64,000 nt of DNA from a virus (lineage: Duplodnaviria; Caudoviricetes): positions 5,287-69,286 of the IMG/VR virus record IMGVR_UViG_3300005512_000020, one strand, 5' to 3'. The position numbers and the translations under genes were made by a program. Under the pieces are notes generated by a model, which made no database searches, was not told the DNA's origin, and saw only the letters and a program-made list of their open reading frames with translations. How positions within the stretch are numbered: the first letter of the stretch is position 1; each line of letters starts with the position of its first letter. Below, piece after piece: positions 8,547-45,687 of the stretch.

Positions 8547-8745
8547 TAAACGTAGCAGAACATAATACAGGAAGTATCGAAAGTCAAATAAAAGAATCAA
8601 AGAAAAAACCGCACCAAAGGCACTCGGAAACCTTTGATGCGGTCTTGGCTTACTGGCAGCATGCTTGCAAACTGGCAATCAAGCATGCTGCCCTATTCGC
8701 TCTGCATCAGGGGAAAGTCATAAAAACCTGATACAGCAGCAAAGT

Positions 8746-8869
8746 TGGCGGTCCAGGCAGGGGTGAACCCCTGCAATCCTCAAGCTTGTATGACTCGCAC
8801 ATACATCACGGAAGATTGGGTTCCGCACTTAACATTAGACGAAAGCTTGCATATGGAGTTTACCGGACC
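8746..8869 (-). ncRNA. 124-nt tRNA-like RNA ending in encoded CCA, non-canonical
   Basis: GGTCCGG/CTGGACC 7-bp end stem plus G-CCA. GCAGGGG-TTCA-CCCCTGC hairpin abuts it. Internal CAAGCTT/AAGCTTG stem encloses two further hairpins. Starts 7 nt downstream of tRNA-fMet. Confidence 0.72.
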
Positions 8870-8876
8870 ATTAATC

Positions 8877-8952
8877 TGGTAACGGGTGTCGGACTTGAAC
8901 CGACGTTCTTCTGGTTATGAGCCAGACGAGATGACCACTTCTCCAACCCGTA
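8877..8952 (-). tRNA. tRNA-Met(CAT), initiator type
   Basis: 76-nt cloverleaf: D GAGA/TCTC, anticodon TCTGG-CTCATAA-CCAGA, T GTCGG-TTCAAGT-CCGAC, ACCA end. 1:72 mismatch and A11-U24. Confidence 0.93.
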
Positions 8953-9039
8953 AATCAAAGAGCGATACTCCTGAGCCTCCCGCTACGCGGATTCTTTGAC
9001 CCAGGAGTTGCCGACCAGGAACCCCTAATCCTGAGAGGG

Positions 9040-9069
9040 AGACTAAACCGTAACGCCACAGGTAGTCAA
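9040..9069 (-). promoter_or_regulatory. Sigma70-type promoter for the tRNA/ncRNA cluster
   Basis: TTGACT-N18-TAGTCT. Overlaps a partial copy of the 22-bp operator (9050-9071). Confidence 0.55.
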
Positions 9070-9076
9070 ACATTAT

Positions 9077-9544
9077 TTAAGAAAAAAGCAATGGCGATCT
9101 TGATAACAGCCCTGGACTGACTCTGCTTGGTAGTGTCAACCTGGATAGTAGGTTGATATCGGCTTCAAGGAATGCAGCATACACCAGCTCAGAGCAGAAC
9201 CATCGCTTGTTGTCAACATTCCTGCGGCTCATAAACCGGAACACTCCGAAGTAATCATACTTCACCCCGATCTGTTTGATTGCAAAATTCTCAACCACCT
9301 TGCTCTGGTGCTCCGTGAGTCCGTCCACCTCAAAGATACTTACGCCTTTCAGGTCTTTTGGATACTTGCGTCTTACCCCAGGCCCACGGTGCCATGCCTC
9401 AATCAAAGATCCGTCAGGCATCACAATGGCCGCATGACTGTAATCACTCCATGTCTGCCACCGGATAATCGCGGAGATAATCCCTCTCCCACGAAACAGG
9501 GCCACGCGAACCTTCTTGCTTTCACCTAACAGATTTTCATTCAT
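9077..9544 (-). CDS. YiiX/YebB-like permuted NlpC/P60 (papain-like) amidase
   Basis: SAIIRWQTWSDYSHAAIV...KQIGVKYDYFG...WFCSELV (His precedes Cys). Confidence 0.85.
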   Translation of the reverse strand: MNENLLGESKKVRVALFRGRGIISAIIRWQTWSDYSHAAIVMPDGSLIEAWHRGPGVRRKYPKDLKGVSIFEVDGLTEHQSKVVENFAIKQIGVKYDYFGVFRFMSRRNVDNKRWFCSELVYAAFLEADINLLSRLTLPSRVSPGLLSRSPLLFS

Positions 9545-44380: not shown

Positions 44381-45687
44381 TGATTATCTTCAGGGCCGAT
44401 AGATGCGTTCTCAAATCTGGTATGCTCAGGGAACCACGCGATTGATATGTCTGCTTCCGCCCCTGCTCTGTTCTTGGCTACACCGAGGGTTCGTTGGCCT
44501 TCCTCCCTTTCGTAAATGAAAGTGACCGAGTCTGCGTCCTGCTCAATGCTCCCTGAATCCCGAAGGTCTGACATACGGGGTCTACGTTTAACTTCCTTGC
44601 CCTTGTGCATGCTTGGCTTGTCGAACTCACGATTCATCTGGCAAAGCGCGATAACCGGCACATCCAACTCTTTGGCCATAGCCTTCATGTTCATAGAGAT
44701 TTCACCTACCTGATCGTTACGTGTGGCTTTCGGGTTTGTTGCCTTGATCAATTGCAGGTAGTCAATAATCAACACCTTCGCTCCTTGCCGAACCATGCGT
44801 CTGGCGCGTGTCCTGATGTAGTTGATATTTACGCCAGCTGTATCGTCGATCTGTATCTTGGTTTTAGCAACATGTCTGAGCGCATTCATGAACCGTGCGA
44901 GATCCGACTCCGTCACGTTCTCTTTACGCAAGATAGCCTGAGTGTTCACCTTGCCATGGACTGCTGCGAGACGTGCGTTCAGCTGGTTGCGGCTCATCTC
45001 AAGAGAGAACACACCAACAGGTATGTCTTTATCGGATAGCCTTAGCGCAATGTTAAGTGCGAATGCTGTCTTACCCATACCTGGCCTTCCTGCCATAACA
45101 ACCAGATCAGTCTTTCGTAACCCCCCGAGAACCCGGTCGTAATCCACGTAGCCAGTTGCATAACCGAGGGCATCTTTCTTGCCGTCCCATACCGCTTGAT
45201 AGAGCTCGGCAATTTCAAGGACAGATTCTTTCTGCGTCTTGGTTTGAGTGATATCTTCCTCGCGCAACTCAGCCATAGCATTGTCCACGTTGGCTATCAC
45301 ATCAGCAATCTGACCGCCATCAGGATTCTCGGAAGCAGTCTTGAGTTGCATGGCAGCAAGGAAAGCTTTCCTTCGCAGCAACCCGAGCCTTAGATCCGAC
45401 ATCCACATGGGCCAATTATCCTTGGTCCCAGTCTTGCCTATGTAAGTCTCAATGTGGTTGTTCAGATGCTTCTTGCCGTCCTTGCAGACAGCGAACCGAA
45501 CAGTTGCCTCATCGACCTGACGGCCAGCAGCCTCCAGCTTCTCCATCAAGCTAAACAGGTATGAGCAGGTCTGGTCCCAAAACCAATCAACGGTCAACCC
45601 TGCGCTGATAACCTCCTCCCACGCACCCAGGATCAGAGACCCTATCATGCGCTCCTCTGCTTCTAATTCGTAGGGAACCTTAGCCAT
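44377..45687 (-). CDS. dnaB: Replicative DNA helicase
   Basis: GRPGMGKT, FSLEMS, IIDYLQL, DLRDSGSIEQDAD. Confidence 0.95.
   Translation of the reverse strand: MAKVPYELEAEERMIGSLILGAWEEVISAGLTVDWFWDQTCSYLFSLMEKLEAAGRQVDEATVRFAVCKDGKKHLNNHIETYIGKTGTKDNWPMWMSDLRLGLLRRKAFLAAMQLKTASENPDGGQIADVIANVDNAMAELREEDITQTKTQKESVLEIAELYQAVWDGKKDALGYATGYVDYDRVLGGLRKTDLVVMAGRPGMGKTAFALNIALRLSDKDIPVGVFSLEMSRNQLNARLAAVHGKVNTQAILRKENVTESDLARFMNALRHVAKTKIQIDDTAGVNINYIRTRARRMVRQGAKVLIIDYLQLIKATNPKATRNDQVGEISMNMKAMAKELDVPVIALCQMNREFDKPSMHKGKEVKRRPRMSDLRDSGSIEQDADSVTFIYEREEGQRTLGVAKNRAGAEADISIAWFPEHTRFENASIGPEDNQ

Follow-up and report, generated by a model that had tools for sequence, protein, structure and literature searches.

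A CCA-ended tRNA-like RNA with an inner cloverleaf in the tRNA-Met operon of a phage

Introduction

What is the 124-nt RNA, ending in CCA, that lies directly behind the tRNA-Met gene of a phage and that looks like one tRNA enclosed in another? The window that we analysed is a stretch of 64 kb (64,000 nt) of a 69,286-base phage record in IMG/VR, and the record is estimated to be 99% complete. An initial annotation had taken the RNA for a new tRNA mimic. We have asked what its two tRNA-like parts consist of, if they could have arisen by chance, if any known RNA family accounts for them, what related phages have in the same place, and which explanation fits best with all of this.

Results

The RNA operon

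The 124-nt RNA is part of a non-coding unit on the minus strand, which lies between a C92-peptidase-like gene, with its stop at 9077, and the next promoter (8587-8559). The order within the unit is a promoter-like site, a structured leader, tRNA-Met, a 7-nt spacer, the 124-nt RNA, two hairpins and a terminator (Table 1). A simple promoter scan left the promoter-like site unscored and its -10 hexamer is weak; the promoter block TTGACTAC..GCGTTAC is unchanged in four related operons. The mismatch at position 1-72 of the tRNA-Met is U-U in the window phage and A-C in most of the relatives, and that it is kept while the bases change fits with a tRNA of the initiator type. The RNA had been described as starting 7 nt after a tRNA-fMet, and this is the gap (8876-8870) that follows from the tRNA-Met called by ARAGORN. 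No open reading frame of at least 50 aa overlaps the RNA on either strand. Its CCA is encoded, which is also the case for both of the real tRNAs of the phage, tRNA-Met and tRNA-Arg. Downstream, the hairpin with the U-rich loop is placed between the variable RNA and the terminator, and the perfect 13-bp hairpin is placed between this conserved hairpin and the terminator.

Table 1. Features of the RNA operon in the window, and of the corresponding slot in related phages
Feature	Position	Strand	Basis
Promoter-like site of the RNA operon, TTGACT (9069-9064), 16-nt spacer, TTTAGT (9047-9042)	9042..9069	-	read from sequence
Structured 5' leader, sequence variable among relatives	8953..9041	-	folding and comparison of relatives
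tRNA-Met(CAT), encoded CCA, position 1-72 mismatch (initiator-type)	8877..8952	-	ARAGORN; Rfam RF00005 62.5 bits; alignment with relatives
7-nt spacer GAUUAAU, U at -1 before predicted RNase P site	8870..8876	-	sequence
Whole 124-nt CCA-ended tRNA-like RNA	8746..8869	-	sequence, folding, frame scan
Outer acceptor-like stem, 5' strand GGUCCGG	8863..8869	-	pair probability 0.93-1.0
13-nt linker UAAACUCCAUAUG with the palindrome CAUAUG; partner of GUAUGUG.GAGU in the MFE alternative	8850..8862	-	folding
Inner cloverleaf (69-70 nt): CAAGCUU/AAGCUUG, weak D arm, CGGAA-CCCAAUC-UUCCG, UGAU, GUAUG-UGCGAGU-CAUAC	8781..8849	-	ARAGORN call, no Rfam tRNA match
6-nt linker AGGAUU, together with the G before it an alternative partner of AAUCUUC in the anticodon-like arm	8775..8780	-	third fold, -41.1 kcal/mol
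T-arm-position hairpin GCAGGGG-UUCA-CCCCUGC, 7 bp and tetraloop, stacked on outer stem	8757..8774	-	pair probability 0.97-1.0
Outer stem 3' strand CUGGACC (8756-8750), discriminator G (8749), CCA (8748-8746)	8746..8756	-	sequence, folding
Hairpin with U-rich loop GGUUUUUAUGACUUUCCCC, loop sequence kept in all related operons	8700..8739	-	comparison of relatives
Perfect 13-bp hairpin GGGCAGCAUGCUUG..CAAGCAUGCUGCC, present only in the window phage	8655..8693	-	sequence, comparison of relatives
Strong intrinsic terminator of the RNA operon, 17-pair stem and T run, conserved in relatives	8605..8646	-	scan and comparison
Next promoter TTGACT-17-TATGTT, for the 104-aa gene 8546-8232	8559..8587	-	scan and comparison
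Slot module in relatives	L005:6782-6842, L011:345-406, L006:2211-2270, L012:2639-2698, L007:3805-3862, L014:1206-1263		

The outer frame

The two ends of the RNA pair with each other in an acceptor-like stem of 7 bp with one G-U, which is followed by G and CCA, exactly as the initial annotation had it. The hairpin next to this stem had been called T-arm-like, and it is true that it abuts the outer stem in the position of a T arm, but it is a tetraloop on 7 bp and has no T-loop; an outer T-loop was rejected since the four nucleotides of the UUCA loop cannot make a T-loop of seven. The outer frame has no D stem either, which had also been seen before, and a 5' linker of 13 nt takes the place of the D arm. 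With no T-loop in the outer hairpin and no D arm in the outer frame, RNase P or other enzymes that look for a tRNA elbow could only find one in the inner domain. A U at -1, a G at +1 and R73-CCA are favoured determinants of bacterial RNase P, and all of them are present at the ends of the 124-nt RNA.

The inner cloverleaf

ARAGORN calls, unprompted, positions 8780-8849 as a tRNA-Leu(caa), and the cloverleaf geometry that a tRNA finder looks for is thus found in the inner domain only. The cloverleaf with a spacing of its own that had been proposed at 8781-8849 is hereby corroborated, and all of its stems could be located. It has an acceptor-like stem of 7 bp, a 5-bp stem with the 7-nt loop CCCAAUC, a 4-nt variable loop (UGAU) and a T arm that abuts the 3' strand of the acceptor-like stem, while the D stem is degenerate, with two pairs and two mismatches. 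In the T arm G53-C61, U54, C56, R57 and A58 are all present, and position 55 is a G. The anticodon-like loop reads C32 C33 C34 A35 A36 U37 C38, and the 3' side reads A-GGA and not NCCA, so there is no CCA belonging to the inner domain itself. Decoding calls for U33, a purine at 37 and, on the 3' side, NCCA or a place where it can be added; with C33 and U37, and no encoded CCA, the inner domain is not usable as a tRNA. Bacterial tRNA-Leu has a long variable arm, and the anticodon CAA together with a variable loop of only 4 nt is therefore a misfit to the very tRNA that ARAGORN names.

The RNA also contains palindromes (8843-8855 and 8781-8788, minus strand), namely CAUAUG, AAGCUU twice and the 8-nt CAAGCUUG, and the bases of the inner "acceptor" stem could thereby pair between two molecules as well.

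Folding and chance

The five helices comprise 31 pairs, which are all intact and include a single G-U. The nested cloverleaf is not the structure with the minimum free energy (MFE), which for the 124 nt is -42.3 kcal/mol; it comes to -39.0 kcal/mol as drawn and to -41.0 kcal/mol when enforced, and a third fold, where AAUCUUC is paired with GAGGAUU, comes to -41.1 kcal/mol. The three inner folds are thus within about 1.3 kcal/mol of each other when each of them is enforced. Only three helices are thermodynamically robust, namely the outer stem and the UUCA hairpin, with pair probabilities of about 1, and the CGGAA/UUCCG hairpin, with about 0.9. For the 124 nt as a whole the folding z-score is -2.75.

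When ARAGORN was run on 100 dinucleotide-shuffled windows (6.4 Mb) it made one call, and a call inside the given 124 nt is expected by chance at about 1e-5. For the outer frame we scanned for RNAs of 60-160 nt that end in NCCA, are closed by a stem of 7 bp in which no more than one pair is G-U, and have a hairpin of at least 5 bp abutting this stem. This frame turns up 1.65 times per shuffled 64 kb, counting both strands, and is unremarkable genome-wide, but a frame that starts within 15 nt of the CCA end of a tRNA is expected at about 2e-4 by chance. Chance is thus excluded as the origin of the shapes of the 124-nt RNA. The natural alternative to chance is descent from tRNA sequence, and descent alone is no proof of function.

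Known RNA families

At the gathering thresholds Rfam assigned no family to the 124-nt RNA in the window. The Rfam models for tRNA, YrlA and tmRNA had no match on the locus at E<=10, and when the 136 nt of 8740-8875 were searched alone with all Rfam families there was again no match at E<=10. The RNA does not reach the gathering threshold of RF00005, which is 29 bits, whereas the neighbouring tRNA-Met scores 62.5 bits. Scans with Rfam and ARAGORN had been proposed together with the initial annotation, and the outcome is that Rfam knows no such family and that ARAGORN calls the inner domain and the upstream tRNA-Met. The annotation had also held the RNA apart from tmRNA, and rightly so: ARAGORN and Rfam detect no tmRNA, the pair 3-70 is U-A, a reading frame for a tag is absent, and the length is 124 nt.

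An antisense target within the phage was rejected. The best complementarity is one 13-mer, of which about 0.2 are expected by chance; it covers positions 34-46 of the RNA (AAUGUUAAGUGCG), is complementary to the minus-strand transcript of a DnaB-like helicase (45049-45061 in the window) and is probably meaningless.

Homologue searches

The exact pattern of the 3' half had no matches in IMG/VR. A pattern anchored on the loops, with the stems left free, had two matches in IMG/VR, both of them coding sequence without the stems, and 11 loci in JGI metagenomes and four in GTDB genomes, none of which has the stems. A pattern anchored on the tRNA-Met had no matches in IMG/VR and JGI metagenomes, and a blastn search with the RNA in 50,697 phage records (INPHARED) found no match at E<=10. 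The 763-aa protein in the portal position, used as an anchor, has no relatives in IMG/VR or INPHARED, and the C92-like neighbour led to three loci (L002, L009 and L010) with other contexts and no RNA; three more (L008, L037 and L038) were left out as too short. A second, independent JGI assembly has the sole further copy of the window RNA, with 100% identity, and the sequence is accordingly not an assembly artefact. The 124-nt RNA is an orphan, with no homologue in IMG/VR, JGI metagenomes, GTDB genomes or INPHARED phages.

The slot in related phages

Relatives of the operon were found by way of its flanking proteins, in Logan contigs with the same gene order, and the identity to these relatives is 68-71% for the C92-like protein and 67-73% for the 104-aa protein. 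There are six distinct variants (L005, L006, L007, L011, L012 and L014), and all six retain the promoter block, the tRNA (with a mean column identity of 89%), the U-rich-loop hairpin and the terminator. The conservation of these elements shows that the slot between the tRNA and the U-rich-loop hairpin is a transcribed RNA locus. In the relatives it is filled by a variable hairpin and then by a conserved module of about 60 nt, which is laid out as P1, UUAC, CGC, CGURAU, a 7-bp hairpin, UA, GCG, AUA and the return strand of P1, and in which the internal loops are invariant. The stems of the module covary: 94.8% of the cells are paired, compared to 25-40% with the partners slid, and seven pairs change on both sides. 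The module has no match in Rfam, and a k-turn was rejected because of a change from G to A in three variants.

The 124-nt RNA is not a version of this module. The covariance model of the module (R1) gives only generic hairpin matches of at most 11 bits, none of them on the core of the motif, and local alignments of the window RNA to the module are at chance level (p 0.16-0.68). Homology to the slot RNA of the relatives was rejected, as the "CCGUGAU + hairpin" that they share is not significant. The lineage of the window phage has thus swapped the content of the slot for an unrelated RNA, and as the nearest relatives do without the 124-nt RNA, it must be dispensable for the lineage and is possibly recent.

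Two of the relatives have odd tRNAs in the position of the tRNA-Met, both with the same acceptor and T arms. The one in L011 (227-302) has the abnormal loop CAUUUUG, and ARAGORN says Lys-UUU; the one in L012 (2525-2601) has CAUUUUAG, which gives a loop of 8 or 6 nt, and ARAGORN returns "tRNA-???". Both may be phage tRNAs whose anticodon loop has been remodelled. With a covariance model built on the window RNA there was a match to the T arm of this tRNA in L012, with an E-value of only 2.3, and the two T arms (GAUGUAGGUUCGAGUCCUAC in L012 and GAUGUAUGUGCGAGUCAUAC in the window RNA) differ by one compensated stem pair and the change of U55 to G. This likeness would fit an inner domain that is a diverged copy of a tRNA, but is only suggestive.

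Discussion

Comparison with known systems

Phages T4 and T5 have stable RNAs, RNAC (species 1, 139 nt) and RNAD in T4 and RNAI, RNAIII and RNA1 in T5, that like the window RNA are encoded among or after the tRNA genes. In the T4 RNAC (gene rnaC) the T arm is canonical and the closing stem resembles an acceptor stem, and the ends of the window RNA are tRNA-like as well. The T5 RNAI, with a length of 107 nt, ends in ..GAGCC-GCCA, which is a closing stem and then GCCA as in the window RNA, and RNA1 is annotated as "tRNA-like stable RNA". The T5 record gives its three RNAs as of unknown function, and the biological roles of RNAC and RNAD are likewise reported as unknown (PMC3014915, PMC9697503). 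There is no similarity in sequence to T4 or T5, neither by blastn with the whole collection nor with the model of the window RNA on both tRNA regions. The interior also differs, being a complete cloverleaf in the window RNA and long hairpins in the T4 and T5 RNAs, and so does the hairpin in the T-arm position, which here has no T-loop. Still, in context and layout the window RNA resembles the stable RNAs of phage tRNA clusters: it lies in a tRNA transcription unit, it is non-coding, and it has a tRNA-like closing stem and end. The T4/T5-type RNAs are a kind and not a homologous family. Of the claim of a new tRNA mimic we can keep the CCA-ended nested shape, in a tRNA operon and outside the Rfam families, but the kind as such has precedents in T4 RNAC, in T5 RNAI and RNA1 and possibly in a tRNA intron of a Lak megaphage.

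Other nested arrangements are also known. In the YrlA/Yrn1 RNAs of bacteria and mycobacteriophages (RF02553, PMC4201824), the two ends pair in a stem that encloses a tRNA-like domain, as they do here. In Mycobacterium smegmatis this domain has an acceptor-like stem of 7 bp, undergoes a cut by RNase P and acquires CCA (PMC4201824), whereas the window RNA has its CCA on the outer ends and an extra hairpin beside the nested domain. In a Lak megaphage the "enigmatic intron" of a tRNA-Thr(TGT) is possibly a tRNA gene in its own right (Devoto et al. 2019, PMC6784885). The outer gene is there a complete tRNA predicted with an intron, while the outer part of the window RNA is without D and anticodon arms. 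The tmRNA is similar in that the ends of a longer RNA form a CCA-bearing helix, with an acceptor stem and an adjacent arm, but it has G3-U70 and about 350 nt, and the window RNA has U-A at 3-70 and 124 nt. There is also the engineered "tRNA scaffold" that Ponchon and Dardel reportedly made in 2007, in which a foreign RNA replaces the anticodon arm and the frame is said to process and stabilise it. We think that the outer frame of the window RNA may work in a comparable way, with the difference that the scaffold is artificial and keeps its D and T arms, and that the outer frame here has neither.

The preferred explanation

The explanation that we prefer, even if the scales are evenly balanced, is that this is a small stable RNA with a tRNA-like maturation, of the same kind as T4 RNAC and T5 RNAI and RNA1, and that it holds a non-decoding cloverleaf which is likely of tRNA descent. 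How the RNA is processed, how stable it is and which fold it actually takes we infer from these analogies and from the features at its ends. It would be co-transcribed with the initiator-type tRNA-Met and matured by the tRNA-processing machinery of the host. The 7-bp end stem would stack on the 7-bp UUCA hairpin into a minihelix of 14 bp with a 3' GCCA, the 5' end would be released by an RNase P cut between U(-1) and G(+1), and the trimming of the 3' end would stop at the encoded CCA. The outer stem, the stacked hairpin and the GCCA could then be a frame for processing and stability, by analogy with T4 RNAC and T5 RNAI/RNA1, and the interior a tRNA-shaped cargo, probably derived from a tRNA, that does not decode because of C33 and U37, the degenerate D arm, G55 and the absence of a CCA of its own. 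In favour of a stable RNA are the outer frame exactly 7 nt after the CCA of a tRNA and the operon's own promoter-like site and terminator; against it are the absence of a homologue, the relatives that lack the RNA, the near-isoenergetic folds and the absence of an Rfam match to tRNA.

Alternative explanations

The same points would suit a non-functional remnant, that is decaying or rearranged tRNA material, e.g. one tRNA copy inside another, which is merely transcribed as the trailer of the tRNA-Met operon. An orphan RNA without counterpart in the relatives and without an Rfam tRNA match, with a degenerate D arm, C33/U37 and G55, and with alternative folds that are equally stable, is what such a remnant could look like. 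Neutral decay is, on the other hand, expected to break stems, and here none of the 31 pairs in the five helices is lost and only one is a G-U; the RNA has also kept its encoded GCCA, its U(-1)/G(+1) and a tRNA-like spacing, and the nested layout is not the product of a simple decay of tandem tRNA genes. We regard a remnant as unlikely, though it deserves to be taken seriously. Rather improbable is a trailer that acts in cis, with hairpins that work only for the upstream tRNA-Met, in its maturation, its stability or its termination, e.g. as a processing platform or an exonuclease block, and with no role in trans. It would agree with a unit that is built of hairpin after hairpin, and with the other hairpin-rich sequence in the slot of the relatives. 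Generic hairpins would, however, not yield a cloverleaf that ARAGORN recognizes, nor a stem with a GCCA end 7 nt after a tRNA, and the conserved internal loops and the covariation of the relatives' module point to a specific function and not to filler.

That the RNA would be a precursor of a usable tRNA, either an outer tRNA from which an "intron" is removed or an inner cloverleaf that is excised, provided with CCA and decodes, seems very improbable to us. The inner domain does have an acceptor stem of 7 bp, an anticodon stem of 5 bp that closes a 7-nt loop, and a T arm close to the canonical form, and there are parallels in the YrlA of M. smegmatis, with its internal RNase P cut and its gain of CCA (PMC4201824), and in the Lak phage tRNA intron that may encode a tRNA (PMC6784885). 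An intron-containing tRNA, which the initial annotation had named as a finding that would speak against it, was rejected, since only 55 nt are left after removal of the inner domain and these have no D or anticodon arm. For an excised inner tRNA the C33 and U37 of its loop and the anticodon CAA with a 4-nt variable loop, where bacterial tRNA-Leu has a long variable arm, are equally unfavourable, and its 3' side is AGGA and not NCCA in a phage whose real tRNAs encode their CCA. It is hardly conceivable that the RNA is a Y RNA of the YrlA type, with a tRNA-like module on a stem that binds the Ro60 (Rsr) protein, even if it has the same general layout, with the ends paired in a stem around a tRNA-like domain. 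The 5' end, UGGUCCG, presumably recalls the conserved 5' strand of animal Y RNAs, and we have counted this in favour. Against it, and in line with the earlier opinion that this is not a bacterial Y RNA, there is no Rfam match to YrlA (RF02553) at E<=10, and GNCGAA(N)G, the motif of the Ro-binding stem in YrlA (PMC4201824), is absent from GGUCCGGUAAAC, for which reasons this candidate was rejected. Nor does the 69-kb phage record, which was the scope of this search, have any match to TROVE/Ro60 (PF05731), a gene that the search did pick up in the control genomes.

A possible role

To return to the small stable RNA that we prefer, our committed guess is that it would show tRNA-like surfaces to a factor that binds tRNA, as a mimic or a sponge, and that it would not take part in translation. 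The partner could, speculatively, be a tRNA-directed defence or toxin enzyme, or an enzyme for processing or modification. It is a bolder thought, and one that we consider doubtful enough to be improbable, that the RNA is a double tRNA mimic, with a CCA minihelix and a tethered tRNA body without anticodon function, and that the phage produces it next to its initiator-type tRNA in order to soak up or misdirect a host factor that attacks tRNA, such as a defence tRNase or a modifier of the acceptor end. The slot would then be an arms-race locus, where the relatives have swapped the RNA and altered the anticodon loop of the tRNA. Both tRNA-Lys(UUU) and tRNA-Met(CAU) are among the reported targets of anti-phage tRNases (PMC13056530), and the tRNA context, with an initiator type and with odd loops in two relatives, is mildly suggestive with regard to a decoy.

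Conclusion

The structure is real and non-random and is situated in a real RNA operon. Small stable RNAs in the tRNA clusters of phages have long been known, and the window RNA is an extreme form of them, in that a tRNA-like frame encloses a domain that is itself tRNA-shaped. Behind its initiator-type tRNA this phage lineage has a slot in which structured RNAs, unrelated to one another, take each other's place, while the operon around it remains fixed. As a lead from a single sequence, and not as a result, one may add that such RNAs, if they are mimics directed against tRNA-directed defences, would be a mode of counter-defence beside the replacement tRNAs that have already been described (PMC11464382, PMC11555353).
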